Below, piece by piece: positions 6,397-57,051 of a DNA stretch of 64,000 nucleotides; within the stretch, counting starts at the first letter, position 1; every line of letters begins with the position of its first letter. Made by a program: the position numbers and the translations under genes. The DNA comes from a bacterium (GTDB lineage: Bacteria; Patescibacteriota; Patescibacteriia; UBA1558; UBA10009): NCBI GenBank assembly GCA_018672055.1, contig JABHGM010000001.1:136884-200883 (forward strand), in the 5' to 3' direction. The notes under the pieces are model-generated. The model saw only the letters and a program-made list of their open reading frames with translations, was not told the DNA's origin and made no database searches.

Positions 6397-7888
<1,492 letters not shown>

Positions 7889-7959
7889 TAGGGAGTATTT
7901 ACTCAGTCATCTTTTTTAAAGATGATCTTAGAGAGGTCGAATACATTTTAATGTATACG

Positions 7960-7992
7960 GGAATTAACATTAATCCTATTACTTTCTAGCTG
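7960..7992 (+). other. 3' arm of the pre-16S processing stem
   Basis: GGAATTAACATTAATCCTATTACTTTCTAGCTG is the reverse complement of the 5' flank at 6277-6313, the usual RNase III-type processing helix. Confidence 0.6.
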
Positions 7993-8000
7993 TTAAAGTG

Positions 8001-8027
8001 GCTGGGTTTTCAAGCCCAGCTTTTTTT
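8001..8027 (+). terminator. terminator-like hairpin between the 16S and the tRNA pair
   Basis: GCTGGG-ttttcaag-CCCAGC followed by TTTTTTT. Confidence 0.4.
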
Positions 8028-8044
8028 GTTATCATTTACCTATT

Positions 8045-8119
8045 GCCACGGTAGCTCAGTGGTAGAGCAGTGGACTGAAAATCCACGTGTCGGCGGTTCA
8101 ATTCCACCCCGTGGCACCA
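8045..8119 (+). tRNA. tRNA-Phe (GAA), CCA encoded
   Basis: GCCACGG acceptor stem, GTTCAATTCC T-loop, anticodon loop CTGAAAA. Confidence 0.9.
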
Positions 8120-8196
8120 GGGCGATTAGCTCAGTTGGTTAGAGCGCTACACTGATAATGTAGAGGTCGGAGGTTCAACTCCTCCATCGCCCACCA
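8120..8196 (+). tRNA. tRNA-Ile (GAT), CCA encoded, directly abutting tRNA-Phe
   Basis: GGGCGAT acceptor stem, anticodon loop CTGATAA, GGTTCAACTCC T-loop. Confidence 0.9.
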
Positions 8197-17202: not shown

Positions 17203-17667
17203 ATGAATATTAAAAATTGGTTTAAATCTAAGCCAATGTGGTTAAAAAGCGCATTAATAACTTATAGTTTAAATATTATACCGGCTTTGCTTTTTCTATA
17301 TTACATATACTTAGATACTAACGGCTTTGATGCACTCGGTATGTTGATATTATTAATTTGTGGCTTAATCATACTTTTTCCTATTGGGGCAATAATTGGT
17401 ATTTTCATAGACAAAATTAACAAAACCAAGCACCATAAAAACTATAAAATATTATGCTCCTTAATTGCTTCTATTTTATTTTTAGCATTACATTTTTCCA
17501 AGTTAATCATTACTTTGATAACTAATAGACGAAAATTTAATTTTGGATTTAGTTTATATGATTTACGAAGTTTACTTACATTCATAATAACTGGATTGAT
17601 TATTGGTTATATTATTGATCTTGTAATAAAATGTAAAACAAAATCTAACCAAAAATATGATAGTTAA
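17203..17667 (+). CDS. hypothetical membrane protein
   Basis: 154-aa ORF with 4 TM helices. Confidence 0.4.
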   Translation: MNIKNWFKSKPMWLKSALITYSLNIIPALLFLYYIYLDTNGFDALGMLILLICGLIILFPIGAIIGIFIDKINKTKHHKNYKILCSLIASILFLALHFSKLIITLITNRRKFNFGFSLYDLRSLLTFIITGLIIGYIIDLVIKCKTKSNQKYDS

Positions 17668-17902
17668 ATATATCTCTTACAATAAACAGCTTAAAATAGC
17701 AGAAGACCTATATAGTATGTCAGATTCTATTGAAGCAGCTAAACGTTTAGAAAAAGACTATAATATTACTATAAAATATGGTAAATCAGTTAAACTAAGA
17801 CCATTTGCTAGAAAATTAAATAAAACTAGATTTTTTAATCATAAAATAGAAAAATCTATTTTAAAACATACGGGTAATGAAATTGACTTAAATAAATTAT
17901 AG
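17657..17902 (+). CDS. hypothetical small protein
   Basis: 81-aa ORF overlapping the upstream gene by 11 nt. No motifs. Confidence 0.3.
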   Translation: MIVKYISYNKQLKIAEDLYSMSDSIEAAKRLEKDYNITIKYGKSVKLRPFARKLNKTRFFNHKIEKSILKHTGNEIDLNKL

Positions 17903-17903
17903 T

Positions 17904-18395
17904 ATGGATCAAGAACAAAATAATCCTAGAAAATCAGCTGCAGATGATATTAATATTGATCAAATCGGTCAAGGTAATCTATATTCCAAAGGTGCTTCAA
18001 GTGGCGGGTCAGGTAATAAAGGCTGGGGTCTTAAAGGTCAATTATCTCAATATAGAAAAAGAGGCGGGAGAACAGAAACTAAGAATCTATCAAAACAGAA
18101 TCTTGATGATATGGAAAATTTGATTTCTAGTCGTATAAAAGGTAATTCTAGTAGATCTTCAGCTATTGTGTCTAGACAGGATAGTCTAAATATAATGAAA
18201 AAAGCTGAAGAGCTAGTTAAGACTGAGGGTAGTAATTTTACTAGGCAGGATAAAGAAGATTTAAAAAATGTTGTCAGTACTATGCGAATTAAAAGTCGTC
18301 AAGCACTTAGATCTAGACCTTTAAACAATACTAATGAATTAAAAAACAGTAGTTCAACTACTGTTAGTGATATTAATGAATTCTTAGTAGATTGA
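17904..18395 (+). CDS. hypothetical Gly/Ser/Arg-rich, probably disordered protein
   Basis: 163-aa ORF starting 2 nt after the previous stop. Low complexity. Confidence 0.35.
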   Translation: MDQEQNNPRKSAADDINIDQIGQGNLYSKGASSGGSGNKGWGLKGQLSQYRKRGGRTETKNLSKQNLDDMENLISSRIKGNSSRSSAIVSRQDSLNIMKKAEELVKTEGSNFTRQDKEDLKNVVSTMRIKSRQALRSRPLNNTNELKNSSSTTVSDINEFLVD

Positions 18396-19514
18396 TTATT
18401 TTGCGCAGTACTCATTTATTACATCTATCCCTTCTAATGGTTTTATCCTATATTTAAAATAATTCTCTTTAGTAATATTATTAATTTTAATTGAATTGCT
18501 AGATTTAAAATCACCAATAGCAATTCTTTTTAATTCTTCAATATAGGCTCCTGTTTTTAACTTTTTACCAATATCATGAGCTAGTGTTCTAATATAGGTG
18601 CCTGTACTACACTTAACTCTTATTTTTAATAAATCATTCTTAAATTCTATTAATTCAATATTATATATTTCTATTGAACTTTTTTTTCTTTTTATTACTT
18701 TACCTTGTCTGGCTAAATCATATAGCTTTTTACCATTTACTTTTTTTGCTGAATACATTGGAGGTGTTTGTTTTTGTTTACCAATAAATTTATTTAAAAC
18801 TTTTTCTAATTTTTCTTTTGAAATATCTACCTCTTTCTCTTTGCTTATAGTACCTGTTCTATCGTAAGTATCAGAAATACCCCCTAATTTAATAGTTGCC
18901 TCATATTCTTTTGGTAATAGATCAAATATACCAACAAGCTTAGTAGCCTTAGAAACAGCACATATTAAAAGACCTGTAGCAAATGGATCTAGAGTACCTG
19001 TATGGCCAATTTGTTTTAAGTCTAAAATAGACCTTAATTTAGAAACAACATCATGTGAAGTCCATTCATCTTCTTTATCAATTAGTAAAAAACCAGCTTG
19101 TTCATCCAAATGTGCTTTTCGTAATTTTCTACCTTTACAATAATCTTCTTTAAAAGGCATTAACTCTTCTATTTTATAATGTAATTTTGAATTTAATCTT
19201 AAATCATACAAGCCTTTAACAAAGAATTGTTGATCATAACCTAAAGCCACTACATCAGGCTCTTCTTCTCTTATAATTTTATATGGATCCTTTAAGTCTC
19301 CTAAGATTACTTTATCAACTATTTTCAAGATTTTTAAATAGCTTAGTCTTTCCTCTTCATTAAAATGCGGTTTAAAACCTTTATGTTTTTCTACGTTCTT
19401 ATCTCTAGCAATTATTACAATTAAAAAATCCCCCAGTTCCTTAGCTTGTCTAATTGCATCAATATGACCTGGATGAAAAAAATCGAAAGTTCCCGTTAAT
19501 ATTACTTTTTTCAT
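18396..19514 (-). CDS. truB: fusion protein: RibL-like HxGH nucleotidyltransferase domain plus tRNA pseudouridine(55) synthase TruB
   Basis: N-terminal ~130 aa (VILTGTFDFFHPGHIDAIRQAKELGDFLIVIIARDKNVEKHKGFKPHFNEEERLSYL...PDVVALGYDQ) carry cytidylyltransferase-superfamily motifs, closest by eye to archaeal FAD synthetase RibL. Residues ~140-372 (LLIDKEDEWTSHDVV...GHTGTLDPFATGLLICAVSKATK...YSAKKVNGKKLYDLAR) carry the TruB catalytic Asp and PUA-less core. Confidence 0.75.
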   Translation of the reverse strand: MKKVILTGTFDFFHPGHIDAIRQAKELGDFLIVIIARDKNVEKHKGFKPHFNEEERLSYLKILKIVDKVILGDLKDPYKIIREEEPDVVALGYDQQFFVKGLYDLRLNSKLHYKIEELMPFKEDYCKGRKLRKAHLDEQAGFLLIDKEDEWTSHDVVSKLRSILDLKQIGHTGTLDPFATGLLICAVSKATKLVGIFDLLPKEYEATIKLGGISDTYDRTGTISKEKEVDISKEKLEKVLNKFIGKQKQTPPMYSAKKVNGKKLYDLARQGKVIKRKKSSIEIYNIELIEFKNDLLKIRVKCSTGTYIRTLAHDIGKKLKTGAYIEELKRIAIGDFKSSNSIKINNITKENYFKYRIKPLEGIDVINEYCAK

Positions 19515-19574
19515 ATATTTCTATTGTATCTTACTTACTAAAATTAACAAGTATTAAATCTAAAATACTACAAA

Positions 19575-19603
19575 TTGACAAAAATCGATAGATATGTTAC
19601 AAT
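19575..19603 (+). promoter_or_regulatory. sigma70-like promoter with an extended -10
   Basis: TTGACA (19575-19580), a 17-nt spacer, TGnTACAAT (19595-19603). It sits about 165 nt upstream of the 19770 CDS. Confidence 0.4.
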
Positions 19604-19769
19604 ATATAATTATTTTACCTCTGTTATTATAATGTAAATAGCATATAACCTCTATTTATATGTTGTAAAATAATGTGAAAGATTATTAACAAAGATATTT
19701 AATCTAGGCTGATTTAAACAAATCGTAGATTAAAATGTCGCTCATTGATAAACAAAGAAAGGAAAGATC

Positions 19770-21299
19770 ATGAAAAGAATCACTCTCTTCATTATCGCTG
19801 TCTTAGCTATTAGCCAAGCATCTATAACTATTGAACCCAATATAATCATTGATCAGAGTAACAATACTGGTATTGCAACCGTCTGGATTACAAATGCTAA
19901 TGTAGATATTGCTGGAATTCACCTCGGCCTCTATGATACTGAAAATTTCAATCCTATTACAATTACCAATGTCTACGGCGAGATTTTGGAAAATTTAAAC
20001 TGGTTAACCGGCTGGAATGAAAATGAAATAATGACAGTAATGCTTAATCCAAATACACAGTTTCCAACCGGAAACAATCTTCTAATTAATATTGAATTTC
20101 AAGTTGAAGATGCGGCATGTGTTGTATTAATACCTAATCTAGAAATGCCAGCTTTCGTCTCAATGCAATCATTTAATCTGATTACAGATTATATATTCAT
20201 AAATGATGAAAATTGCGAATTAATTTCTGGTTGTACTGACCTATCAGCGCAAAACTATAACGATATCGCTCTCTATAACAACGGCACATGCGAATACGCA
20301 CCAATTATAGAACATATACCAAACCAATGGTTAACACCAAGCGAACCGTTATTGATTGAACTTAATGCCAGTGATGAGGATGATGATGAACTTACTTATT
20401 CAATAAATGATAATGGACTACTGTCAATCTTGCTAGACTCTAACGTTTTAATAATAGATACTTCTCAGTTAAATTGGGGATTCACTGAAGTCACAGTATA
20501 TGTCAGCGATGACACTTATCAAGACCAAGTCACATTCTCTATTATGGAAAACATGGAGTATGAGACTAGTTATGGAGATGTTAATAATGACGGCATTGTT
20601 AATGTAAGTGATATAGTTACAACTATTTCCATAATTTCTGGTCAATTAACCATGACTGAACAGGCAGACATTAACAGCGATGGTATTGTTAATATCATTG
20701 ATGTAGTTCTCCTAGTAGAAATTGTCTTGGGTTATAATCCTGGACGACTTTCTCCGTCGATAATTGACCTCTTACTTGAAGAAGGTTCTCTGAATACTAA
20801 AGCATCTGGTATCGCCGGTTTTCGACTAACAACTAACGTCGAAGATTTCGAAATTACGAATCATCCTGACAACTGGATACTAACACAATACGATAATCAA
20901 TTAATTATGATAAATCTCGATGGTTCAGAATCTGCTGGTAAATTATTTGAATACTCTGGTAAAATAGAAATCGAAGATGTCTTCCTGATCGGCTGGAATG
21001 GTGTTCAAATTGAAACCAATATTATTACTGTACCGAATGATTTTGAGCTATTCCCAGCTTATCCTAATCCTTTCAATCCTCAAACAACCATTGACTTTGA
21101 ATTGGCTTCTGACTCAAATGTCAAAATATCAATCTATAACTTATCCGGTCGTGAAATAGAAACCCTAGAAAATGGTACTAGACAATCCGGTTATTATTCT
21201 ATGACCTGGGATGCCAGTAGTCAAGCTACAGGCGTTTACCTAGTCAGAATGACTGTCGATAACTTTACCACCACACAAAAAGTGATGTTGGTTAAATAA
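19770..21299 (+). CDS. secreted protein with two dockerin-type Ca-binding repeats and a T9SS-type (Por) C-terminal sorting domain
   Basis: Signal peptide MKRITLFIIAVLAISQA. Dockerin repeats GDVNNDGIVNVSDIVTTISIISG and ADINSDGIVNIIDVVLLVEIVLG. The C-terminus YPNPFNPQTTIDFELASDSNVKISIYNLSGREIETL...GVYLVRMTVDNFTTTQKVMLVK matches the Por secretion tail consensus. GC and C/G-ending codon use look higher than in neighbouring genes. Confidence 0.6.
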   Translation: MKRITLFIIAVLAISQASITIEPNIIIDQSNNTGIATVWITNANVDIAGIHLGLYDTENFNPITITNVYGEILENLNWLTGWNENEIMTVMLNPNTQFPTGNNLLINIEFQVEDAACVVLIPNLEMPAFVSMQSFNLITDYIFINDENCELISGCTDLSAQNYNDIALYNNGTCEYAPIIEHIPNQWLTPSEPLLIELNASDEDDDELTYSINDNGLLSILLDSNVLIIDTSQLNWGFTEVTVYVSDDTYQDQVTFSIMENMEYETSYGDVNNDGIVNVSDIVTTISIISGQLTMTEQADINSDGIVNIIDVVLLVEIVLGYNPGRLSPSIIDLLLEEGSLNTKASGIAGFRLTTNVEDFEITNHPDNWILTQYDNQLIMINLDGSESAGKLFEYSGKIEIEDVFLIGWNGVQIETNIITVPNDFELFPAYPNPFNPQTTIDFELASDSNVKISIYNLSGREIETLENGTRQSGYYSMTWDASSQATGVYLVRMTVDNFTTTQKVMLVK

Positions 21300-21321
21300 T
21301 ACTTTTAAAATGTATTATAAA

Positions 21322-21356
21322 AGGCCTTATGAATTTATTCCTCTAAGGCCTTTTTT
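21322..21356. terminator. bidirectional terminator
   Basis: AGGCCTTA-14 nt-TAAGGCCT followed by TTTTTT. It overlaps the 3' end of uvrB on the other strand. Confidence 0.5.
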
Positions 21357-23391
21357 ATTTCTTTAACTTTTTAATCTGATCTCTAATACTAGCTGCTTTT
21401 TCAAATTCTAAATTCTCAGCTACTAATTTCATTTGATTTTCTAAATCATGAATAAGCATAGCTTTTTCTTTTCTAGGTAGTTTTTTCATAGCTTTTTCAT
21501 CAACCTTATTATTCTTAGTAAAGCTATCATCTATTTCCTTTTCAATACCTTTTGGAGTTATCTTATGCTTTATATTATATGCTTCTTGTATTTTTCTTCT
21601 TCTCTTAGTTTCTAAAATAGCTCTTTTCATCGAATTAGTCATTTTATCTGCATACATTATTACCTTACCTTCAACATGTCTGGCTGCTCTACCCATTGTT
21701 TGTATGAGAGCTGTTTCTGATCTTAAAAAGCCTTCTTTATCAGCATCTAATATGGCTACTAATGATACCTCTGGCAAATCTAAACCCTCTCTAAGTAAAT
21801 TAATACCAACTAAAACATCATATTTACCAAGTCTCAAATCTTTAATTATTTCAATCCTATCTAAAGTATCTACTTCTGAGTGTAAATACTGAACTTTAAC
21901 TTTTAAATCATTTAAATAATCAGTAAGTTCTTCTGCTAAACGTTTAGTAAGCGTAGTTACTAAAACTCTTTCCTTTTTATCAGTTCTTAACTTTATTTCA
22001 TTTAATAGATCATCTACTTGATACTTAGATTTTCTTAATTCAATTTCAGGATCAAGTAACCCTGTTGGTCTTATTACTTGTTGCGCAATAGCAGAGCCCT
22101 TCTCTTTTACTTTCTTTTTAAGATCAATGTAATCTACTAAGAGTTTTTGCTTATGATTAACTTCAATTTTTTTAGTTATTATACCCGATCTATCATATTC
22201 ATAACCAGCAGGTGTAGCTGATACATAAATTATCTTATTTACCTTTTTCTCAAACTCTTTAAATTTAAGTGGTCTGTTATCAAGTGCTGATGGTAATCTA
22301 AAACCATATTCAATTAAATTCTCTTTCCTAGCTTTATCTCCTCTATACATTCCATTAATTTGAGGTATGGTCATGTGTGATTCATCAACGAAAAGTAAAA
22401 AATCTTTCGGAAAGTAATCTATTAAGGTTTCAGGTCCAACACCTTCAGCTCTACCAGTTAAATACCTTGAATAATTTTCAATACCATTACAATATCCAAC
22501 ATGATTCATCATTTCTAAATCATGCTTAGTTCTCTCTTCAATACGCTGTGCTTCAATTAATTTATTATTCTTCTTAAAATACTTTATCTGTTTCTTCATG
22601 TCATTCTCAATTTCTTTGTTTACTCTTTTTATTGTAGTTTCTGGTGTTACAAAATGTTTTACTGGGAATAATACAATATTATCTAAAGTCTCTTTTTTTC
22701 TTCGAGTTAAAAAGTTAACTTTGGTTATCTTATCAATTTTATCGCCAAAAAATTCAACCGTTACTATATCTTCACTTGATTCAACTGGAAACACTTCCAC
22801 TGTATCACCTCTTACTCTAAATGTTCCTCTCTTAAATTCAATTTCATTTCTTGTAAATTGTACATTAACTAATTTTTTTAAAAATTCTTGAATACTTATT
22901 TTCTCATTTACTTTTATCTTAACAGAAAGATCTTGATAGAACTCTTTAGAGCCTAAACCATAAATACAAGAAACTGAAGCTACAATAATTACATCTTTTC
23001 TGGATAATAGTGAATTAGTTGAAGCATGTCTTAATCTATCTATCTCTTCATTAATATCTGTTTCCTTTTCAATATATGTATCTGAAGATACAACATATGC
23101 TTCTGGTTGATAGTAGTCATAATAGCTCACAAAATAATGAACTGCATTATCTGGAAAAAATCTCTTAAATTCTGAAGCTAATTGCGCAGCTAATGTCTTA
23201 TTATGTGAGATAACTAATGTTGGTTTCTGATACTTAGCAATAATATTTGCCATAGTAAACGTTTTACCTGAACCAGTTACACCAAGCAATGTTTGATCTT
23301 TATAATTCTTTAAACCACTATTAAGTTTAGCAATTGCCTGAGGCTGATCACCTGTTGGTTTAAATTTAGATTGTAATTTAAACTTATTCAT
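21355..23391 (-). CDS. uvrB: excinuclease ABC subunit B
   Basis: [15 protein letters not shown] Walker A, a helicase motif set, a beta-hairpin region, and the C-terminal UVR domain [12 protein letters not shown]. Confidence 0.9.
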
Positions 23392-23487: not shown

Positions 23488-24408
23488 TTGAATAATATGA
23501 ATGAACAATTTGAAGATCAGTCTGAATCACCAGAAACTTTAGCAGAAAAAATGACAGAGGATGGAATACAAAATTTAGGTGAACGATATATTGATATTTT
23601 CTATGAAAAAGCTAGATCAATGTTGAGAGAAGACAAGATAGATCCAGATAACTTTGAATATTACGATAAAGAAATGATAGCTAGAGATAAGAAATATGTA
23701 GAAGAGATGAAATCAATATTTTCAGAATCCAATACTAAAGAAGAAAAAATTTCACTAAAATTTGCTACTGTTTTAGAAGCTATCATTGATCAACATACTA
23801 CTCTTAGCAATTGGCTTGGTGAAAGGGCTCATTCTAGACAAGCAAGTGATTTTGATAATTACAAAAATGGTATTGATACAATTGTTGAATTTGAAACAGA
23901 ACAACCAGAATCAACCTCACATTTAGGACTAGCTATGGACGTTACTTTCTCAAATAACTTATCAAAAAAAATTAGCCGCATAAAAGATGAGATTGATAAG
24001 GATGAATTACCAGAAATAAAATACTTTGAATCAGAAATTGAAGACTCTATTAGTTCTCAAGGCAGGGTTAGGGATCTTCCACGTGTTATTATTGCTTTTG
24101 ATACAAAATCTTTATCAGAACTTGCAGCTCTTTGGATTCAAGGTAAAAATAGTGAACTAGGTAATCATCCTGCTCAGATACTAATAATTGAAGAAATACT
24201 TCTTCAATTAAAAACATACAGAGAATATGCTCAAGCAAATAATCAACGTAAAATTGTTAGACGATATGATCGATCAATTAGTATTGTTGAAAGCATTAAA
24301 CTCGAAAAAGAAGAACTATATTTAGAAACTCAAAAAAAACACGGTCAATCACATAAAGATAACCCTGCATTTATTAATCTGCAAAAGAATTTAAAAATAT
24401 TTAGATAA
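23488..24408 (+). CDS. hypothetical acidic protein
   Basis: 306-aa ORF with no recognisable motifs. Confidence 0.4.
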   Translation: MNNMNEQFEDQSESPETLAEKMTEDGIQNLGERYIDIFYEKARSMLREDKIDPDNFEYYDKEMIARDKKYVEEMKSIFSESNTKEEKISLKFATVLEAIIDQHTTLSNWLGERAHSRQASDFDNYKNGIDTIVEFETEQPESTSHLGLAMDVTFSNNLSKKISRIKDEIDKDELPEIKYFESEIEDSISSQGRVRDLPRVIIAFDTKSLSELAALWIQGKNSELGNHPAQILIIEEILLQLKTYREYAQANNQRKIVRRYDRSISIVESIKLEKEELYLETQKKHGQSHKDNPAFINLQKNLKIFR

Positions 24409-44536: not shown

Positions 44537-45880
44537 ATGTTAAACATCGTATTAATCATTCTATTCTACCTATTATTCGCCTATTTAAGCTCAAAAAACG
44601 TTAAATATGGCCTCTTTATGGTAACTGCGTTACTTCCATCATATTTGGTTAGATTTAACGTTTTTAACATACCAACTACACTTTTAGAAGGTATGATATA
44701 TATTCTATTTATCATTTGGCTATTTAAAATGAAGAAAGAATATAGTCTTACCTTTAACCCACTTAAGTGGTTTAAATCTAAAAAAGAATTATTTAATCCA
44801 GTACCTAATATATTAAAATTACCTTTAATTCTCTTTTTAGTAGCAGCTACTATCTCCGTATTTGTATCACCTAACTTTGAATCTGCTCTAGGTTTATGGA
44901 AAGCATATTTTATTGATGCCCTATTATATTTCATAATATTTATTTATACTATTAAATCTAAAATTGATATACAAAATATTATCAGAGTTTTAGGTTTAAC
45001 TGTTATTGTAATTGGTTTATTTGCTATATATCAAAAAATAACTGGCAATTTAATTCCTAACCCTTTTTGGGCAGACGAAAGTACTAGACGCATAACAACA
45101 TTTTTTGGTTATCCCAATGCTAATGCTTTATTTATATCACCTATACTTCTTTTAACTTTAATTAATTTAGTTAAAGACAAAAAAAAGTATTTATATCAAA
45201 TACTAAATATTTTAATCTTAATACTTGGCTTTCTAACTGTGCTTTGGGCAGAATCAACAGGAGCCTTACTTGGTATCCTAGCTGGTTTAATAACAATATT
45301 TATTTTCACTAAAAAAACTAGACTTATAACTCTTACTTTAATTGCATTTGTTTTAATTGTTTCATTATTTATACCGGGAGTTACCTCAAAGATAGAAAGT
45401 TCATATATTTCCATAAATGAAACTCATCTTTCTGCATCACCAACTGATTTACAACTAAGAACAAGCCAGTGGCGTGAAACATATGAGCTTTTAAAAACAA
45501 AACCTATCTTAGGTGCTGGCTTAGCTGGGTATCAAACATTAGTTGAGCCATATCATATAAATAAACATATTGAAATCTATTTATATCCACATAACTTCTT
45601 TCTAAACTTTTATGTTGAGATTGGTCTACTAGGATTAATTAGTATTTGCTGGCTTCTTATTATATACTACAAGCTATCATATAAGTCAGAATATTCTATT
45701 TATTCCATAATCTTAAGTTCAGTAATGATTACTATTCTAGTACATGGTTTAGTAGATGTACCATATTTAAAAAATGACTTAGCAATATTATTTTGGATTA
45801 TCTTTGGCTTAACAATCAGTATATATAATACACGGAGAGGTGCCGGAGTGGTTGAACGGGCTGCTCTCGAAAAGCAGTAG
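44537..45880 (+). CDS. O-antigen ligase/polymerase-like (Wzy_C family) polytopic membrane protein
   Basis: About 12 TM helices with a large extracytoplasmic loop near the C-terminal third, as in Wzy/WaaL proteins. The last ~15 codons overlap tRNA-Ser. Confidence 0.5.
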   Translation: MLNIVLIILFYLLFAYLSSKNVKYGLFMVTALLPSYLVRFNVFNIPTTLLEGMIYILFIIWLFKMKKEYSLTFNPLKWFKSKKELFNPVPNILKLPLILFLVAATISVFVSPNFESALGLWKAYFIDALLYFIIFIYTIKSKIDIQNIIRVLGLTVIVIGLFAIYQKITGNLIPNPFWADESTRRITTFFGYPNANALFISPILLLTLINLVKDKKKYLYQILNILILILGFLTVLWAESTGALLGILAGLITIFIFTKKTRLITLTLIAFVLIVSLFIPGVTSKIESSYISINETHLSASPTDLQLRTSQWRETYELLKTKPILGAGLAGYQTLVEPYHINKHIEIYLYPHNFFLNFYVEIGLLGLISICWLLIIYYKLSYKSEYSIYSIILSSVMITILVHGLVDVPYLKNDLAILFWIIFGLTISIYNTRRGAGVVERAALEKQ

Positions 45881-45923
45881 ACTTTTACTAGTCACGGGGG
45901 TTCGAATCCCTCCCTCTCCGCCA
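45834..45923 (+). tRNA. tRNA-Ser (CGA) with a long variable arm, CCA encoded
   Basis: GGAGAGG acceptor stem, anticodon loop CTCGAAA, a long extra arm, GGTTCGAATCC T-loop. Confidence 0.9.
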
Positions 45924-48423: not shown

Positions 48424-49287
48424 ATGACTAAAATTCGCAAAGCAATTATACCAGTAGCTGGTTTTGGAACTAGATTCCTACCTGCTTCAAAAGCTCAGCC
48501 TAAAGAAATGTTGCCTATAGTTGATAAACCAACTATTCAATACATTGTCGAAGGCTGTGTTAAGGCTGGAATAAAAGATATTATCTTTGTTACTTCAAGT
48601 AACAAACGTGCTGTTGAAGATCACTTTGATAATTCAACTGGTTTAGAAAATTGGTTAAAAAAACAAGGCAAAACTAAACAGTTAAATGAAATTAAAAAAA
48701 TTGCTCAGATGGCTAATTTTATTTACATCCGACAAAAAGGACCTATGGGTAATGGTACTCCTGTTTTAAATGCTGAAAAAATAATTGGTGATGAGCCCTT
48801 TATGGTTTTTTGGGGTGATGAATTCTATACTGGTCCTAAATCTTGGGTAAAACAAATGATTGATGTCTATGAAAAATATGGAGATCCAGTTCTAGCTGCT
48901 GTTAAAACTGATAAAGAAGGCCAGGCTCGTTACGGAATTATTGATGGCGTTAAAGTAGATAAAAATATTTATGAAATTAAAAAAGTAATTGAAAAACCTG
49001 GTCCTAAAAAAGCACCTTCTAAATTAGCTTCAGTTGGTGGTTATCTTTTAACACCTGATATATTCCCTATTTTAAAAAAATTAAAACCTAGTAAAGGTGG
49101 TGAAGTATGGCTAGCTGATGCTATTCATACACTAAGCAAACAAAGAGCTATGTATGCCTGTGAAATTGATGGTGAATTATATGATGCCGGAACTCTATTT
49201 GGTTGGTTAAAGGCTAATGTTGATCTAGCTTTAACTCATCCTAAAATAAGTAAAGAATTTAAAAAATATCTTAAAAAAATTAAGTAA
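48424..49287 (+). CDS. galU: UTP--glucose-1-phosphate uridylyltransferase
   Basis: MTKIRKAIIPVAGFGTRFLPASKAQPKEMLPIVDKPTIQYIVEG is the canonical GalU N-terminus. The ORF track starts at 48403, but that start would place the -10 element inside the coding sequence. Confidence 0.8.
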   Translation: MTKIRKAIIPVAGFGTRFLPASKAQPKEMLPIVDKPTIQYIVEGCVKAGIKDIIFVTSSNKRAVEDHFDNSTGLENWLKKQGKTKQLNEIKKIAQMANFIYIRQKGPMGNGTPVLNAEKIIGDEPFMVFWGDEFYTGPKSWVKQMIDVYEKYGDPVLAAVKTDKEGQARYGIIDGVKVDKNIYEIKKVIEKPGPKKAPSKLASVGGYLLTPDIFPILKKLKPSKGGEVWLADAIHTLSKQRAMYACEIDGELYDAGTLFGWLKANVDLALTHPKISKEFKKYLKKIK

Positions 49288-50660
49288 TGAGATTATTTTC
49301 AAACAAAATATTCGTTTTACTCTTAATTAGTACTTTCTTTTTAACTACTGGTTTATCTTGTAAATTATTTCCCGGTAAACAAGCTCCTGCTGCATATACC
49401 AAAGCTCAAACTTTAACTTTTTGGGGTGTCTGGGATACAAGTGATGATTTAGAAGTGTTGATAAAAGATTTTAAAGCTATACATCCAAATATTAAAATAA
49501 GTTATAAGAAGTTTAGATATCAAGAATATGAACAAAAACTTTTAGAAGCTTGGGCTGAAGACAGAGGTCCGGATATATATAGTATTCCAGCTACTTGGCT
49601 TAGAAAATATAAATCAAAAATTACTCCAATGCCGGATAGCACTAAACTTAGTTTTCAAGAAGTAAAAACTACTTTAGGTAAAACTGAAATAAATACCTAT
49701 GTTAGAGATATTCCAACCTACAGTGCTCGTGACATTAAAAATGAATTCGTTGATGTTGTCTATAATGATGTAATAATCGGTGGTAAAGTATTAGGTATAC
49801 CATTTAGCATGGATACTTTAGTTCTTTACTATAATAAAGATTTACTAGATGCTAGCGATATACCTGTACCTCCAACTGATTGGACTGAATTAAAAGAAGC
49901 TGTTAAAAAAATTACTAAAGTAAATAATAATAATGAAATATTACAAGCTGGTGTAGCTTTGGGTGTAGCTGACAATCTACCACATAGCGTTGATATAGCT
50001 TCTTTACTCATGATTCAAAATGGAGCACAAATGGTTGATGCTCGTGGTCAAGTTGCTTTCCATACTTCACCTACTAAAGATAAAAGTTATGCTCCAGGAC
50101 TCCAAGCTTTACAATTCTATCTAGACTTTGCAGATCCAATAAAAGAAGTATATTCTTGGAATAATAATCAAAATGATGCCTTTAATGCTTTTGTCTCGGG
50201 TAAACTTGCTATGTTCTACGGCTATTCATATCACTTACCTCTCATTAAAACTCAAGCTCCCAAATTAGAAATAGATATTGCCCCAATGACTCAGATAGAA
50301 GGTTCTCAAAAAAATATTAATTATACTGATTACTGGGTCTATACTGTTTCTCATAAATCAGCCAATACTGATGCTGCTTGGGGTTTTATAAACTTTGCTT
50401 CAGGTGACAAAGAAGTAACTAAGTATTTAAATCAAACTAAAAAACCTACAGCTTTAAGAAGTTTAATTACAAAGCAAAAAGCAGATCCAGAACTAGCAGT
50501 CTTTGCAGATCAAGTATTAACTGCTACCCATTGGTATAGAGGTAATGATGCTTTAAAAATGGAAGAATTCTTTAAAGAAATGTTAGACAGGCTACCTAAT
50601 GCAGCAGATCCTATTGAAATAATGCAAAACGCAGCTTTAAAAATAAATCAAACTTTATAA
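49287..50660 (+). CDS. ABC-type extracellular solute-binding lipoprotein (sugar-binding family 1), orphan
   Basis: Lipobox LTTGLSC, then TLTFWGVWDTSDD...LEAWAEDRGPDIYSIPATW typical of SBP_bac_1. No permease or ATPase genes are adjacent. The start overlaps the galU stop, and the stop lies 1 nt before the first pilin-like gene. Confidence 0.6.
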   Translation: MRLFSNKIFVLLLISTFFLTTGLSCKLFPGKQAPAAYTKAQTLTFWGVWDTSDDLEVLIKDFKAIHPNIKISYKKFRYQEYEQKLLEAWAEDRGPDIYSIPATWLRKYKSKITPMPDSTKLSFQEVKTTLGKTEINTYVRDIPTYSARDIKNEFVDVVYNDVIIGGKVLGIPFSMDTLVLYYNKDLLDASDIPVPPTDWTELKEAVKKITKVNNNNEILQAGVALGVADNLPHSVDIASLLMIQNGAQMVDARGQVAFHTSPTKDKSYAPGLQALQFYLDFADPIKEVYSWNNNQNDAFNAFVSGKLAMFYGYSYHLPLIKTQAPKLEIDIAPMTQIEGSQKNINYTDYWVYTVSHKSANTDAAWGFINFASGDKEVTKYLNQTKKPTALRSLITKQKADPELAVFADQVLTATHWYRGNDALKMEEFFKEMLDRLPNAADPIEIMQNAALKINQTL

Positions 50661-50661
50661 T

Positions 50662-51417
50662 ATGAAATTATTTATATTAATAATTACTTTGCTTATACTA
50701 TTAAACCCATTAGCAGCTGAGGCTAGTGTCTTACCTGCTTGTACAGCTACTGGTAATTGTGGTTTATGTGACTTTTTTGATACTTTCATTAATATTATAA
50801 ATTGGTTACTAGGCGTTGTTGGTGGAATTGCTCTTTTCTTATTTGGCTGGCATGGTTTTGGTATGATAACTAGCGCAGGTAACCCAGAAAAAGTAACTGC
50901 TGCCAGAAAAGGCATGATGCATACTGTTTTAGGAATAGTTATTATTATTTTCTCTTGGTTCTTAGTTACTATCATAATCGGCATATTACTATCAACACCT
51001 GGTTCTACAGGTGATGATGCTTTCAAAAATACTTTATTTAATAATGAAGCTGCTTGGAATCAATATTGTGTAGGTAAGACTGATATTAAAAAATGCCAAG
51101 GCAGAGGCCTAGGTAGTCCTTGTGGTAGTGGTAACTTCTGTTATCCTGACGATGGTAACAAAAAAGTACTAACTTGTACTAATTCAGCTTTTATAGATAA
51201 TAAAGATGGGGATGCTCTGATTGAGGTCAAGAATGCCTGTGAATATTGGGCCAATAGGCCACTCAACCCTAAAGAAGGTTTTCATAATAATCCATACACT
51301 GGCTATACTTGTTTAGAAAAAAAATTATGTGATCCATATGAAAATTTAGGTGCCAGTTATTGTGCTACTTCTGATGCTGAATGTTGTCTGACGCTCCCCT
51401 TTGATCCTTTTTTATAA
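50662..51417 (+). CDS. VirB2/TrbC-like (T4SS-type) pilin-family paralog 1, with a ~140-aa Cys-rich C-terminal module
   Basis: Signal peptide, a variable segment (ACTATGNCGLCDFF), the helix-loop-helix core LFGWHGFGMITSAGNPEKVTAARKG then IIIFSWFLVTIIIG, and a tail with about 15 Cys. Confidence 0.5.
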   Translation: MKLFILIITLLILLNPLAAEASVLPACTATGNCGLCDFFDTFINIINWLLGVVGGIALFLFGWHGFGMITSAGNPEKVTAARKGMMHTVLGIVIIIFSWFLVTIIIGILLSTPGSTGDDAFKNTLFNNEAAWNQYCVGKTDIKKCQGRGLGSPCGSGNFCYPDDGNKKVLTCTNSAFIDNKDGDALIEVKNACEYWANRPLNPKEGFHNNPYTGYTCLEKKLCDPYENLGASYCATSDAECCLTLPFDPFL

Positions 51418-51431
51418 TAATATAAATAAAT

Positions 51432-51827
51432 ATGATAAATAAAAAAAACATTTCAATTCTTTTCCTAGCTATTCTAATGGCTACTCTAATCATTCCTCTA
51501 CCTTTAACTCTAAATGCTGCTGGTAACTGTGGTAACAGTTATTCTGAAGACGATTCAGGAAGTTGTTTAGAAAATCCTTTAGGCTCAGAAACAATTGATC
51601 TGCCAACTTTATATGGTAGGTTACTTTTCTACGGTGTCCTTTTTGTAACTGGTGGTGTAGCTTTAATTATGTTTGTAATAGGTGGCTTTATGTGGATGAC
51701 TGCAGCAGGTAATCCTGAGAAAATTAAAAAAGGTAAAGACACATTAATGTGGGCTATCTTGGGAATAATATTGATATTTTCTAGTTATTCCATACTTCGT
51801 GCTATCTTTGAAATATTACAATTTTAA
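51432..51827 (+). CDS. VirB2/TrbC-like pilin-family paralog 2
   Basis: Signal peptide, a GNCG-containing variable segment, then the core GGFMWMTAAGNPEKIKKGKDTLMWAILGIILIF. Confidence 0.55.
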   Translation: MINKKNISILFLAILMATLIIPLPLTLNAAGNCGNSYSEDDSGSCLENPLGSETIDLPTLYGRLLFYGVLFVTGGVALIMFVIGGFMWMTAAGNPEKIKKGKDTLMWAILGIILIFSSYSILRAIFEILQF

Positions 51828-51961
51828 ATTATCTAGTTTTATTATTAGAATTATTGTATAATATAACTAGGTTATCCACATTTAAAATAAATTTAAATAA
51901 TATTAATTAAAGTAAATTAAAACAAAAACAAAATTTTAATTTACATTTAAGGAGCAAGTCT

Positions 51962-52351
51962 ATGAAAAAATACTTTTCAAAAAAAAGTATCATGGCTTCA
52001 GCAGCAACTATTCTTTGGGTAGTCCCAATGATAGTTGGCGCACAAGTTGATGCTGACTTTGGATTAGGTTATCCTGCAGCAACTGGCTTGGGCACAAACG
52101 ACTTAAAAGACACTATTATAGCTGTACTAAATGTACTGCTTGGTTTCTTAGGCATAATTGCCGTAATTGTAATCTTACTTGGTGGTTTCAAATGGATGAC
52201 AGCCGCTGGTAATGAAGACAAAGTCGCTGAAGCTAAAAAACTACTTGGCGCTGGTATTGTCGGTATAATAATTATATTATCCGCCTATGCAATTGCCACT
52301 TACGTTATTACTCAGATTCAAACCTCGACCGGTGGCACTTTAATTGAGTGA
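51962..52351 (+). CDS. VirB2/TrbC-like pilin-family paralog 3
   Basis: Strong SD AAGGAG. Signal peptide, then the core GGFKWMTAAGNEDKVAEAKKLLGAGIVGIIIILSAY. Confidence 0.55.
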   Translation: MKKYFSKKSIMASAATILWVVPMIVGAQVDADFGLGYPAATGLGTNDLKDTIIAVLNVLLGFLGIIAVIVILLGGFKWMTAAGNEDKVAEAKKLLGAGIVGIIIILSAYAIATYVITQIQTSTGGTLIE

Positions 52352-52450
52352 TAAACTTTAAAAAACTATAGTTATTTAAAGTCTAGACGTTTTCCTCCTC
52401 TGTTTGAGGGGGAATGGCTTAGACTGTAATGACAACTTATACAAAATTAA

Positions 52451-52864
52451 ATGTTTGAAAAACTATACAAACAGTTAATAATTCGGGCATTATTCTTTGC
52501 CCTATTTTTGTATTTGGTAATACCTTTTAATTTACAAGCTTCCCCTGCTGGTGATATTGCTACTCAAATATTAGAAGATACAGCTGTTGAAGCTAAATTA
52601 ATTAATTCAGCAGACAATGCTTTAAATATCTTTGAAATCTCTGGCTTTGTAATTAATATAGTTTTAGGATTTGTAGGTATAATATTTCTAGTCCTTATAA
52701 TTGCTGGTGGCTATATGTGGATGACTGCAGGAGGTAATGATGAAAAAGTAACTAAAGGTAAATCTCTTTTAACTCAATCAATTATAGCTTTAGCTGTTAT
52801 TCTAAGCGCTTTCCTATTAACCAACTTTGTTATAATAAGATTAATGACTAATCTATGGGGTTAA
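52451..52864 (+). CDS. VirB2/TrbC-like pilin-family paralog 4
   Basis: Core GGYMWMTAGGNDEKVTKGKSLLTQSIIALAVILSAF. Confidence 0.55.
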   Translation: MFEKLYKQLIIRALFFALFLYLVIPFNLQASPAGDIATQILEDTAVEAKLINSADNALNIFEISGFVINIVLGFVGIIFLVLIIAGGYMWMTAGGNDEKVTKGKSLLTQSIIALAVILSAFLLTNFVIIRLMTNLWG

Positions 52865-53526
52865 TTAAAAAAAACTTATTTTTAATTCTAATACTATGTT
52901 TTTTAATTATTCCTTTTTATACTCAAGCTGAAGCTGCTTGTCCAAAAAGTCTTAGTATTCAAGAATGTGTTAAATGGGGTCTAGAACAAACTAGCGCTGA
53001 AGCAGGCTATACATTTAATGAAAATCTTGATTCTCAAAGTATTTCAGAAACTGTAGGTAATATTATTTCAAATATTTTAACCTTTTTAGGTGCTTTAGTC
53101 TTGATAATGATTATTACGGCTGGTTTTCAATGGTTAACTGCCCAAGGCGATGAAGAGAAGCTAAACACTGCTAAATCTAGACTGAAGAATGCATTAATTG
53201 GTTTATTAATAATTGTAGCTGCATTTGCTATTACTACATTTGTAACTAGTAATCTAAAAAATATTATTGATGATGCTACAATACCTGATAATCCTGCTAA
53301 TTATATATGCTCTAATTATGATTATGATGTCTGTATTGATAATGTTGACAGAGCTTGTGGTTATTGGATTCCTGATCAAGGATGCTATCCAAACCCTTTT
53401 GACTGTGATTTACGATATCCTTCAGATTGTGAAATACCTGATCCTGATACAGGCCATGATGTTTGTTTGGGTGAAGGCGGTAACTGTATAATAACGCCCC
53501 AAGGCGATAGTTGTTATTGTAATTAA
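52855..53526 (+). CDS. VirB2/TrbC-like pilin-family paralog 5, with a Cys-rich C-terminal module
   Basis: Core AGFQWLTAQGDEEKLNTAKSRLKNALIGLLIIVAAF, then an ~85-aa tail with 12 Cys (CSNYDYDVCIDNVDRACGYW...CYCN). Overlaps paralog 4 by 10 nt. Confidence 0.55.
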   Translation: MGLIKKNLFLILILCFLIIPFYTQAEAACPKSLSIQECVKWGLEQTSAEAGYTFNENLDSQSISETVGNIISNILTFLGALVLIMIITAGFQWLTAQGDEEKLNTAKSRLKNALIGLLIIVAAFAITTFVTSNLKNIIDDATIPDNPANYICSNYDYDVCIDNVDRACGYWIPDQGCYPNPFDCDLRYPSDCEIPDPDTGHDVCLGEGGNCIITPQGDSCYCN

Positions 53527-53527
53527 T

Positions 53528-54073
53528 ATGAATAAAAAATATATAATTCTGTTTCTAACCTTAATAATCTTACTTATTCCTGTTTTAACATACTCCGCAA
53601 ATATTACAGATATAATAGAAGGGTTAGATAAAACAGCAGAAAAATCACTTTTAATAGATCCTAATGAAGAGGCTACTACAATATATGATATGATTGGACG
53701 TATTCTATTTTTTACTTTAAGCCTTCTTGGTATTATTTTCTTAGGTTTAATTATATTTGGTGGTATTGGTTGGTTAACAGCTGCTGGCAATGAAGAAAAG
53801 ATAACTAAAGCTAAAGGTTTGATGTCTAATGCTTTAATTGGTTTAATAATAATAATTGCTGCATATACTATAGCTAACTTTGTAATATTTACTTTAGCTG
53901 ATAAAATAACTGAGGGCAATGATTCATTATGTATAGAAGCTTCAGGAGAATGCCAAAACCATGCATTGGGTGCCACAGATTGCACAATTAATGGTTCTCC
54001 TGGTACTTATGCTTCTAATTATTGTGGAAGTCAATCAAATGATTCTCTTTATCGTTGCTGTATAGCTAACTAA
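53528..54073 (+). CDS. VirB2/TrbC-like pilin-family paralog 6, with a Cys-rich C-terminal module
   Basis: Core GGIGWLTAAGNEEKITKAKGLMSNALIGLIIIIAAY, then a ~60-aa tail with 8 Cys. Starts 1 nt after paralog 5. Confidence 0.55.
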   Translation: MNKKYIILFLTLIILLIPVLTYSANITDIIEGLDKTAEKSLLIDPNEEATTIYDMIGRILFFTLSLLGIIFLGLIIFGGIGWLTAAGNEEKITKAKGLMSNALIGLIIIIAAYTIANFVIFTLADKITEGNDSLCIEASGECQNHALGATDCTINGSPGTYASNYCGSQSNDSLYRCCIAN

Positions 54074-54079
54074 TAATTT

Positions 54080-54589
54080 ATGTTTTTAAATTTAAAAAAA
54101 TCTTTATTTATTCTAATAATAAGTTTTTTAATACTAAGTCCTTCTTTATTATTCGCTCAATCTCCAGAGGATCCTAGTAATCAACCTAATTATACTTATA
54201 AGCAAATTTGTAAATGGGGTGATAATTTAACTGATTGCTTAGAAGAAAATTATAATACTATTACTGGGACTGAGAATGATGATTTTGAAAAAGTAACTTC
54301 TGCAAGTTTATCTACAAAAATAGGAATTATCATTTCATACGTTTTAGCATTTTTAGGAGTTATTTTCTTAGTTTTAATTGTAATTTCTGGATTTCAATGG
54401 TTAACAGCTGGTGGGAATGAAGAAACTGTAACTACTTCTAGAAAAAGAATTATTAATGCTGTTGTTGGCCTCATTATTATTCTCTCTGCCTACGTTATTA
54501 CTGCTTTTGTTACTGATAGGATAGAAAGATCTATTGATAAAACAAATACTGTTAGTATTAATTTGCCTAGTGACTATTTATCTATTTAA
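54080..54589 (+). CDS. VirB2/TrbC-like pilin-family paralog 7
   Basis: Core SGFQWLTAGGNEETVTTSRKRIINAVVGLIIILSAY. Confidence 0.55.
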   Translation: MFLNLKKSLFILIISFLILSPSLLFAQSPEDPSNQPNYTYKQICKWGDNLTDCLEENYNTITGTENDDFEKVTSASLSTKIGIIISYVLAFLGVIFLVLIVISGFQWLTAGGNEETVTTSRKRIINAVVGLIIILSAYVITAFVTDRIERSIDKTNTVSINLPSDYLSI

Positions 54590-54604
54590 TATTTAATTAT
54601 TTAT

Positions 54605-54976
54605 ATGACTAAAAAAATTATAATTTCATTACTAATACTAATTATCTCTAGTTTTTTAATAATCCCCGCTCTAGCTCAAACAAATATAAATACCAATCTT
54701 GAAGCAGCTGGAGAAGGTGCTAAGTATAATATAGACGTTGATGATAATACTATACCTGAAATAATTGGTAAAGTAGTGGCTACTCTACTGGCTTTTGTCA
54801 CCTCAATTTTTATGATGATGGTTGTTTTCTCTGGCGTTCAATGGATGGTTGCTGGAGGTAATGAAGAAAAAATTACTAAAGCTCGTGGTAGATTAATAAG
54901 TAGTATTATTGGCGTAGGTATAACTGCTGCTGCTTATTTCATAACCTGGTTAATTACTGAAACTTTACTAAAATAA
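54605..54976 (+). CDS. VirB2/TrbC-like pilin-family paralog 8
   Basis: Core SGVQWMVAGGNEEKITKARGRLISSIIGVGITAAAY. Confidence 0.55.
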   Translation: MTKKIIISLLILIISSFLIIPALAQTNINTNLEAAGEGAKYNIDVDDNTIPEIIGKVVATLLAFVTSIFMMMVVFSGVQWMVAGGNEEKITKARGRLISSIIGVGITAAAYFITWLITETLLK

Positions 54977-54979
54977 AAT

Positions 54980-55648
54980 ATGAAATCATTTCTTTTAATA
55001 ATTGCTGTTTGTTTCTTAATCCTAGCACCCTTAACTGTGTCTAATGCTTTAAATTTAGGCCAAGAAACATATTTAGAAAGTTTAGCTGGTACAGCCGGCT
55101 ATCAAATTGATAGTGTTCAATCTAATACCTATCTTGATTCGACAATTGGTAAACTACTAGCAAGTATATTTACTTTAGTTGGTATTTCTTTCTTATCACT
55201 TATCATTGTTTCTGGATTTCAATGGATAAACGCTCATGGTAATGAAGAAAGCGCTAAAAAAGCTAAAGATCGAATAATCCATGCTACTATTGGATTAATT
55301 ATTATTGCTTCTTCCTATTTAATCTCCTTCTTCATATATAATTCAATAAATTCCTCAATTACTGGCGAGGTTAATAACTTTGTTCCAGAACCAGGCTTAG
55401 AATGTATAGATAATACAAATTGTATTGGGCATGAAAATGGACCTTACTGTAACTATAATCAAGCTACTGGTTATTGTGGTGGGTGTACAGATGACGATGA
55501 TTGTTCAAGCCCTACTCCTGAATGTGTACGTCCTCTTATTGGCCCTAGCTCATGTCATGAATGCGTAATAGATGCAGATTGTTCTGATAATTTTGGTCCC
55601 AGTTTTGTTTGTGGTAATTTCGAATGTATAGAAAATAATGATTTTTAA
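54980..55648 (+). CDS. VirB2/TrbC-like pilin-family paralog 9, with a Cys-rich C-terminal module
   Basis: Core SGFQWINAHGNEESAKKAKDRIIHATIGLIIIASSY, then a ~100-aa tail with 13 Cys, including the repeated C-x-E-C...D-x-C motifs CTDDDDCSSPTPEC and CHECVIDADC. Confidence 0.55.
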   Translation: MKSFLLIIAVCFLILAPLTVSNALNLGQETYLESLAGTAGYQIDSVQSNTYLDSTIGKLLASIFTLVGISFLSLIIVSGFQWINAHGNEESAKKAKDRIIHATIGLIIIASSYLISFFIYNSINSSITGEVNNFVPEPGLECIDNTNCIGHENGPYCNYNQATGYCGGCTDDDDCSSPTPECVRPLIGPSSCHECVIDADCSDNFGPSFVCGNFECIENNDF

Positions 55649-55653
55649 TTAAT

Positions 55654-56631: not shown

Positions 56632-56643
56632 ATAATAAAACAT

Positions 56644-57051
56644 ATGAAAAAAACAATATTAAAAATTTCTAGCCTTTCCCTTATTATAGGATTAGGCTTT
56701 ACAAAAATAGCTTTGGCTATGCCAACGTTAAATCCTTTAGCCAGAATGAAACACACTGCTGATGTTATTGGTCTGTCCACTGTAAATGTTCATCCAGCTG
56801 AAGTAGCAGCTAATATTATTGCCATCATACTCGGATTAGTAGGTATTATATTTTTTGTGATGATACTTTTTTCTGGTTATGAGCTTATGACTTCTGGTGG
56901 TAACGAAGAAGTAGTGGGTAGAGCTAAAAAAAGATTACAATATGCAATTATTGGAATTGTAGTAATCTCTCTTTCATACATAATAACTATTTATGTTTCT
57001 GAATTAATAAACAGAGCTACATGTGAAGGTTATTATTGTATTAATGAATAA
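56644..57051 (+). CDS. VirB2/TrbC-like pilin-family paralog 11
   Basis: Core SGYELMTSGGNEEVVGRAKKRLQYAIIGIVVISLSY, with the conserved Trp replaced, and a short C-terminal CEGYYCINE. A hairpin and T-run (AGACTGACTTCAT/ATGAAGTCAGTCT) follow the stop. Confidence 0.5.
   Translation: MKKTILKISSLSLIIGLGFTKIALAMPTLNPLARMKHTADVIGLSTVNVHPAEVAANIIAIILGLVGIIFFVMILFSGYELMTSGGNEEVVGRAKKRLQYAIIGIVVISLSYIITIYVSELINRATCEGYYCINE

Follow-up and report, generated by a model that had tools for sequence, protein, structure and literature searches.

The question raised by the window examined here (the whole stretch of DNA that was analysed, 64 kb of contig JABHGM010000001.1) is how a 509-aa protein ending in a type IX secretion system (T9SS) sorting domain came to be encoded by a member of the Patescibacteria, and what it could do there. 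Proteins with such a C-terminal domain (CTD) are reported to be restricted to Bacteroidota and to correlate with the T9SS core genes (PMC10202324). We consider it probable that the gene, located at 19770 to 21299 on the plus strand, was gained by a bacterium of the Candidate Phyla Radiation (CPR) from a donor of the Fibrobacterota-Chlorobiota-Bacteroidota (FCB) group, that it was inserted between truB and uvrB, and that it now specifies a Sec-exported surface or extracellular protein carrying an orphan CTD.

Host genome and protein architecture

The RpoB protein of the window is 74-82% identical to sequences assigned to the Patescibacteria group, Candidatus Komeilibacteria, Kerfeldbacteria and Parcubacteria, and its best named matches are all CPR. 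The window has a GC content of 30% and holds a 16S rRNA gene, tRNAs, housekeeping genes, a FemAB gene and, at 50662-57051, eleven tandem small secreted proteins that all match PF18895 (T4SS_pilin). The longest contig with these exact proteins measures 963,283 bp. Taken together, RpoB, the T4SS_pilin array, FemAB and this contig therefore place the host in the CPR/Patescibacteria with a genome of about 1 Mb, and gene order shared with CPR metagenome-assembled genomes agrees with this. A preliminary description of the locus had assumed a minimal genome, and the RpoB placement agrees with that premise. The Patescibacteria have been described as monoderm (PMC11665869).

The features of the locus, in window coordinates, are as follows.

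19515..21354, no strand: lineage-specific insert of 1,840 bp between truB (18396-19514, minus strand) and uvrB (21355-23391, minus strand), delimited by synteny with relatives
19575..19603, plus strand: candidate sigma-70-like promoter, TTGACA-17-TACAAT with a TG extension (consensus match only)
19758..19766, plus strand: ribosome-binding site (RBS)-like AAAGGAAAG, read from the sequence, with the ATG 3-6 nt downstream
19770..21299, plus strand: coding sequence of the predicted secreted multi-domain protein, 509 aa (ATG at 19770, TAA at 21297-21299)
19770..19820, plus strand: predicted Sec-type signal peptide, aa 1-17, cut after SQA, without a lipobox (inspection and a helix in the AlphaFold2 (AF2) model)
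19821..20213, plus strand: N-terminal all-beta module, aa 18-148, a probable divergent copy of an uncharacterised 'GFQF' module
20232..20297, plus strand: 22-aa two-cysteine motif CTDLSAQNYNDIALYNNGTCEY, aa 155-176, with the consensus CTDPxAxNYNPxATxDDGSCxY
20298..20555, plus strand: immunoglobulin (Ig)-like domain of Big_9/cadherin-like type, aa 177-262 (homolog matches)
20571..20729, plus strand: dockerin, aa 268-320, with two Ca-binding loops and a helix after each (Pfam, AF2 and PDB matches)
20745..21041, plus strand: X module, a beta-sandwich between dockerin and CTD, aa 326-424 (AF2, homologs and hhalign)
21060..21296, plus strand: type A T9SS CTD, aa 431-509 (PF18962, TIGR04183 and AF2)
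21309..21364, no strand: hairpin AAAAGGCCTTA...TAAGGCCTTTTTT lying between the target gene and uvrB, which converge (inverted repeat I2 and sequence), likely a bidirectional terminator

We sought to characterize the sorting domain from its profile scores, its position and its predicted fold. Pfam Por_Secre_tail (PF18962) matched aa 431-506 (E=3.4e-13; 50.1 bits, with the cut-off at 27), NCBIfam TIGR04183 scored 47.4 bits against a cut-off of 23, and the domain stands at the extreme C-terminus and runs up to the stop codon, so that both score and position assign it to the PF18962/TIGR04183 family. Every column that is invariant in 43 homologs is kept (P432, N433, P434, F435, G460, G488, Y490 and the terminal K509), and Y431 and N436 are also invariant or nearly so among these homologs. 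In an AF2 model built with the 43 homologs, in which aa 268-509 reach pLDDT values (predicted local distance difference test) of around 90-98, the CTD is predicted at 95-98 as a beta-sandwich whose six long strands span 438-445, 449-456, 462-471, 474-481, 488-496 and 499-507, with short beta bridges at 426-435. The type A CTD fold is described as having seven strands (PMC10202324), and a seventh strand was not cleanly resolved by DSSP; the predicted architecture is that of an Ig-like beta-sandwich. The preliminary description had recognized a T9SS sorting tail and two dockerin-type Ca loops, and both observations were borne out by the profile scores, the retained invariant residues and the loop positions given below.

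The dockerin was detected by Pfam Dockerin_1 (PF00404) at aa 268-316 (E=1.4e-7; 32 bits, with the cut-off at 22.9). Its first loop, DVNNDGIVNVSD, spans aa 270-281 (nt 20577-20612) and its second, DINSDGIVNIID, spans aa 300-311 (nt 20667-20702), and the pair is visible in the DNA as a duplication (D1) at 90-nt spacing. Solved dockerins match the target by sequence (2y3n_B, E=4e-5), and the AF2 model predicts the domain at a pLDDT of ~90 with helices at 279-289 and 309-320. The score above the cut-off and the duplicated Ca loop and helix both identify it as a type I dockerin (PF00404).

The X module that follows was predicted at a pLDDT of mostly 90-94, with a single 10-residue block at 82, and is conserved in about 60 homologs. 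A Foldseek search with the confident C-terminal half of the model returned generic tandem Ig domains only, and by fold the X module can therefore be named no more specifically than as a beta-sandwich. More was learned from P0385, a 1071-aa T9SS-CTD protein made of repeats of a ~115-aa 'GFQF' module, each followed by the same two-cysteine motif as in the target. The X-module alignment compared with the P0385 repeats gave an hhalign probability of 91% (E=9e-7), and by this profile comparison the X module is a second copy of the 'GFQF' module family.

The N-terminal half was found to be more divergent. Its start, MKRITLFIIAVLAISQA, with the cut falling before S, was judged by inspection to have the n/h/c layout of a Sec signal peptide, as previously proposed, and the AF2 model places a helix at residues 2-16. 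No LPXTG motif, lipobox, transmembrane segment or known wall-binding domain was found in the 509-aa protein. For aa 18-150, Pfam returned no family at E<=10. Target residues 59-182 align in one register to three P0385 repeats (BLASTP E=8e-8 to 1e-6), a score that owes much to the adjacent cysteine motif, and the N-terminal module alone gives a weak match to a P0385 repeat (hhalign P=0.014). The N-terminal module and the X module are probably paralogs, the former divergent. AF2 confidence for the N-terminal module is low (pLDDT 50-61), and its top Foldseek matches are cohesins; no cohesin profile was found for it, and hhalign against the cohesins of P0052 and P0068 gave a probability of 0.4%. 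A cohesin-like fold of this low-confidence part of the model is therefore only a lead. A first impression, that aa 1-140 were a complete orphan, was dropped once P0385 had been aligned.

Residues 1-267 were also searched exhaustively against 1.84 billion representatives, and the 808 matches cover two things, the two-cysteine motif and the Big_9/cadherin-like Ig domain. The consensus of the motif occurs in 810 copies in the 150 best matching proteins. Many proteins match residues 176-259, and P0281, the one scanned against Pfam, is Big_9/Cadherin_5; Pfam Big_9 on the target itself is sub-threshold (E=0.05). It was noted that proteins of up to 4,285 aa (P0275-P0424) contain as many as about 27 copies of the motif, and that neither the motif nor the 'GFQF' module has a Pfam model.

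The promoter-like site at 19575-19603 agrees with the consensus at 11/12 positions and is the top-scoring predicted site of the region. The hairpin downstream was missed by a simple terminator scan because its loop exceeds 8 nt. The intact reading frame, the promoter-like site, the RBS, the hairpin and the retention of all invariant CTD and dockerin residues are signs that the gene is maintained.

The truB-uvrB junction and the origin of the gene

We compared the locus with three syntenic relatives, L084, L169 and L170, whose RpoB proteins are 78-81% identical. Their gene order runs S20, truB fusion, uvrB, ruvA, femAB, NTP-transferase, Mur ligase, rpoB, rpoC and ftsK, and the target gene is absent at the truB-uvrB junction in all three (3/3): truB and uvrB overlap in L169, a 51-aa open reading frame (ORF) alone separates them in L170, and an unrelated 164-aa ORF does so in L084. 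In the window, the target gene stands on the strand opposite to both of these neighbours. No flanking repeats, integrase or tRNA were found around the insert when signatures of mobile elements were sought. A contig search with UvrB gave 600 matches at ~55% identity, the YYDYYQPE pattern being universal, and did not return this genome or its close relatives; metagenome contigs searched with the TruB fusion yielded two loci, one of 1.1 kb and the other a non-syntenic 53% relative.

No orthologs were found outside the gene's own cluster (at least 90% identity) among 5.8 billion clustered proteins, and the next-best match shows 37% identity over 52% of the length. The search for nearest homologs that the preliminary description had suggested thus returned nothing between this cluster and 37% identity, and the gene is confined to a single species-level cluster. 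Over residues 269-509, end-to-end alignments at 30-37% identity were obtained with about 60 proteins. In these the dockerin-X-CTD cassette is always C-terminal, and the domains ahead of it include peptidase C25, sulfatase/phosphodiesterase, beta-propellers, LTD and cohesin. The named homologs belong to Bacteroidetes, Marinimicrobia, Zixibacteria, Balneolaceae and an 'FCB group bacterium', several of them from Tara Oceans. These marine FCB proteins (P0002-P0037 and others) resemble the target in carrying the cassette at the C-terminus, and the 'GFQF' module with its cysteine motif and a Big_9-like Ig domain also occur in such proteins; the target differs from them in its best identity of 37%, its unique module combination, its very divergent N-terminal module and its phylum. 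All homologous modules occur in T9SS-CTD proteins, the named ones being of the FCB group or allied lineages, and therefore the whole protein appears to be built from FCB-type modules.

The composition of the gene was compared with the rest of the window. At third codon positions its GC content (GC3) reaches 0.292, whereas the mean over 60 ORFs is 0.184 (sd 0.042). The target ties for the top value overall and exceeds all other genes >300 aa by a wide margin, and its GC3 is raised along the whole gene, including the N-terminal part. The synonymous-codon log-likelihood has z=-3.3 relative to 21 genes >300 aa, and the tetranucleotide distance ranks 3/82 among subwindows, with only two 16S rRNA windows lying farther out. 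These comparisons, proposed earlier as a check, mark the gene as atypical and agree with the earlier remark that it has more G/C-ending codons than its neighbours. Two FCB contigs with homologs have GC contents of 37% and 47% and GC3 values of 0.34-0.47, and the target gene has a GC content of 35%. A GC3 of 0.29, between 0.18 in the host and the values of the FCB homologs, suggests a partly ameliorated import.

Acquisition from an FCB-group donor had been put forward in the preliminary description, and four independent lines now agree on it: the atypical composition, the absence of the gene from the junction in the relatives, the lack of an ortholog and the occurrence of all homologous modules in T9SS-CTD proteins. 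The gene was almost certainly gained horizontally. The direction of transfer, from the FCB group to the CPR, is inferred from the distribution of homologs. With regard to a phage origin, no PHROG match was found. About 80 IMG/VR viral contigs (L088-L166) encode CTD proteins; of these, L088 and L091 have the complete cassette, the best match reaching only 28% identity. It was also noted that P0003 (JGI 3300072015) comes immediately after a phage tail Collar-domain gene and a 2,327-aa Laminin_G_3 protein, near a LexA-type repressor; P0003 ranks second among all homologs and is the closest of those whose contig is recorded.

Export, the probable orphan sorting domain and competing explanations

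No T9SS or outer-membrane Pfam families were found in 84 kb of the genome (the 64-kb window and 20 kb beyond it); the T9SS core components concerned are GldK/L/M/N or PorK/L/M/N, SprA/Sov, PorV and PorU. In addition, Pfam Cohesin matched nothing in these 84 kb or on the target protein. No second CTD was detected in the window, nor in 159 kb of CPR DNA comprising the genome's extension and the relatives, in which the positive controls were detected. A functional T9SS substrate would be expected in a Bacteroidota/FCB host with an outer membrane, and RpoB instead points to Patescibacteria. Given the reported correlation between CTDs and machinery (PMC10202324) and the lack of any such gene in the 84 kb, the CTD is most likely an orphan sorting signal that survives as a terminal Ig-like domain.

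We propose that a complete gene for a modular cell-surface protein was transferred from an FCB-group (Bacteroidota-related) donor into a marine CPR bacterium, where it would have been inserted between truB and uvrB. The predicted layout from N- to C-terminus is Sec signal peptide, 'GFQF' module, two-cysteine motif, Ig-like domain, dockerin, X module and type A CTD. Sec export and signal-peptidase cleavage would release a protein of ~490 aa outside the single membrane. Since the literature describes such hosts as monoderm and the part of the genome that was read shows no T9SS gene, export would be expected to stop after the Sec step, and the CTD, unable to act as an outer-membrane sorting signal, would persist as an Ig-like domain at the end of the protein. 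Function would then fall to the Ca-binding dockerin and the beta-sandwich modules, in a secreted or surface-retained protein with a putative binding or scaffolding function. Retention, if any, might come about through binding of the dockerin and beta modules to a surface protein, to the protein itself or to a partner cell.

Several points weigh against this proposal. The search that found neither T9SS genes nor a cohesin partner covered only about 84 kb of ~0.96 Mb. The closest donor-type sequence is only 37% identical, the direction and the donor clade are read from the distribution of homologs, and a transfer from CPR to FCB is excluded only by parsimony. Expression and localisation are likewise predicted from sequence. 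The short host ORF at 51962-52351 equals the target in GC3 (0.292), and composition alone is insufficient, because some short host ORFs reach equally high values. Finally, the CTD is without any decay, although its GC3 suggests partial amelioration, and this perfect conservation is left unexplained; a domain with no use at all should erode, and therefore the CTD may have a further role.

The protein was compared with known systems. The Bacteroidota type A cargo of the T9SS, such as P. gingivalis RgpB and F. johnsoniae substrates, shares with the target a Sec signal peptide, a C-terminal Ig-like beta-sandwich of ~80 aa and the PNPF, GxY and terminal-Lys motifs. The CTD score of 50 bits, against 42-56 bits for five FCB homologs, is typical of true substrates. 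Unlike this cargo, the target lies in a Patescibacteria genome, monoderm by the literature, and secretion by SprA/PorV followed by PorU cleavage or attachment is not expected because no T9SS gene occurs in the part examined. The cellulosomal type I dockerins of Clostridia (PF00404) have the same duplicated 12-residue DxNxDGxxxxxD Ca loops with a helix after each, whereas the target shows no cellulosome context or catalytic domain of a carbohydrate-active enzyme, and its dockerin is internal, with two domains after it. Within the Patescibacteria, SEML1_0315 of the Saccharibacteria member Southlakia epibionticum is a dockerin-domain envelope protein that is essential in culture, and for which the authors suggest glycans associated with host cells as the target, in adhesion or degradation (PMC10633639). 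The two are compared here, as dockerin-bearing proteins of the same phylum, at the level of domain type, and in contrast to the target no T9SS CTD is reported for it. Our literature search on T9SS CTDs or Por_Secre_tail in CPR/Patescibacteria found nothing relevant.

The explanations that compete with this proposal differ in what they make of the gene's surroundings. An assembly or binning chimera, in which a segment of an FCB bacterium was joined into a CPR contig, had been named as an alternative in the preliminary description and would account for the atypical composition and the FCB-type homologs. It is very unlikely: the identical 509-aa protein occurs on 68 contigs of up to 963 kb, in 142 blocks of the collection, and the same CPR neighbours were assembled on both sides in all 24 of the 24 contigs read, which were the longest ones. 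Moreover, the insert is just 1.84 kb long, it is flanked by CPR genes whose order is conserved in the relatives, and at 35% the GC content of the gene is below that of both FCB homolog contigs (37% and 47%). Core genes of the same genome were found on 56-70 contigs; the gene is therefore apparently as widespread in the population as they are, and it is apparently fixed. We give just as little credence to a genuine T9SS substrate, served by an outer membrane and by a T9SS whose genes lie elsewhere in the genome, or to an old, vertically inherited CPR gene. The canonical sequence and predicted fold of the CTD would fit a genuine substrate, and most of the genome lies outside the 84 kb examined. 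Yet RpoB indicates a member of the Patescibacteria, described as monoderm (PMC11665869), the T9SS is reported to be confined to Bacteroidota (PMC10202324), neither a CTD protein in the 159 kb of CPR DNA nor a T9SS or outer-membrane family in the 84 kb was detected, and the three syntenic relatives lack the gene.

Two further explanations accept the transfer and differ on its consequences, and we regard each of them as unlikely, to about the same degree. In one, the donor would be the CPR bacterium's own FCB host, and the captured cassette, together with a 'GFQF' module, would let the epibiont dock onto a network of T9SS-displayed host surface proteins that bear cohesins, dockerins and CTDs; binding to host components would be the reason why the CTD and dockerin are kept. 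On this view the gene would be a pointer to the host of an abundant marine Patescibacteria lineage, with recognition by molecular mimicry. The perfect conservation of the CTD and the dockerin Ca loops despite their seemingly useless context fits such an adhesin, as do the essential dockerin-domain protein of the cultivated epibiont S. epibionticum (PMC10633639) and the occurrence of the gene on 68 contigs, in the range of the core genes (56-70). The FCB homologs P0052 and P0068 combine cohesin, dockerin, X module and CTD, and such surface networks are therefore plausible in donors. However, any host identity, co-occurrence or binding is conjectural, the analysis of this reading having covered domain content, and one such gene was seen where a dedicated attachment system might need several components. 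In the other, the gene would be a neutral passenger of recent transfer, functionless in the CPR cell and not yet decaying. Its restriction to one species-level cluster, its still foreign composition, a sorting signal lacking its machinery and the absence of a cohesin partner or second CTD in the DNA examined are consistent with this, but a 1.5-kb reading frame has stayed intact in a strongly reduced CPR genome, with a near-consensus candidate promoter, an RBS and a terminator-like hairpin, and on as many contigs as core genes. Its GC3, well below that of the two FCB homologs, also suggests a time of residence over which no decay took place.

A plain horizontal transfer would be a curiosity rather than a discovery, and NCBI's label, 'T9SS type A sorting domain-containing protein [bacterium]', already includes the sorting domain. 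The interest of a transferred, Sec-exported protein lies in a type A CTD that is canonical and undecayed although its phylum is described as monoderm and such CTDs as restricted to Bacteroidota (PMC10202324), and that occurs on as many contigs as core genes in many marine assemblies; it also lies in the question of why an orphan sorting domain stays intact in a genome so streamlined. The locus is a clean, well-bounded case of a CPR genome gaining a surface gene of host-phylum type. Such genes can nominate the hosts of uncultivated epibionts, and this one may hint at the bacterium's partner organism. It also draws attention to a widespread, undescribed marine FCB cassette of dockerin, X module and CTD, and to the 'GFQF' and two-cysteine modules.

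Neighbouring genes and other observations in the window

The genes around the insert were also compared with those of the relatives. It was noted that two ORFs of 154 and 163 aa between S20 and truB (17203-18395) and one of 306 aa between uvrB and ruvA (23488-24408) have no counterpart in the syntenic relatives, while an 81-aa ORF between S20 and truB has one in L084. As these ORFs lacking in relatives have host-like composition and surround the locus, the neighbourhood is considered a variable region. The truB gene itself (18396-19514, minus strand) carries a fused N-terminal CTP_transf_like domain of cytidylyltransferase/FAD-synthetase type, and the same fusion is found in L084, L169 and L170.

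Elsewhere in the window, tRNA-Phe(GAA) and tRNA-Ile(GAT) come straight after the 16S rRNA gene, and protein-coding genes come next (6398-8196). Neither 23S nor 5S rRNA was found within the 64 kb, and the rRNA operon is thus unlinked. At 44618-45923, a Wzy_C (O-antigen ligase-like) gene has a called 3' end that extends about 47 nt into the 5' part of tRNA-Ser(CGA), located at 45834-45923. A gene for an SBP_bac_1 solute-binding protein (49287-50660) precedes the T4SS_pilin array, and it is the array's paralog at 51962-52351 that ties for the highest GC3 in the window. About 6-10 kb past the window end (L087, 15906-20550), dnaN and dnaA are followed by rpmH, rnpA, yidD and yidC; from this gene order the window is taken to adjoin the likely replication origin. 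Finally, the GC3 of rpoB is 0.26 in L084, 0.52 in L169 and 0.45 in L170, compared to 0.13 in the window. The syntenic relatives are thus much GC-richer, which indicates a strong AT shift in the marine lineage to which the window belongs.

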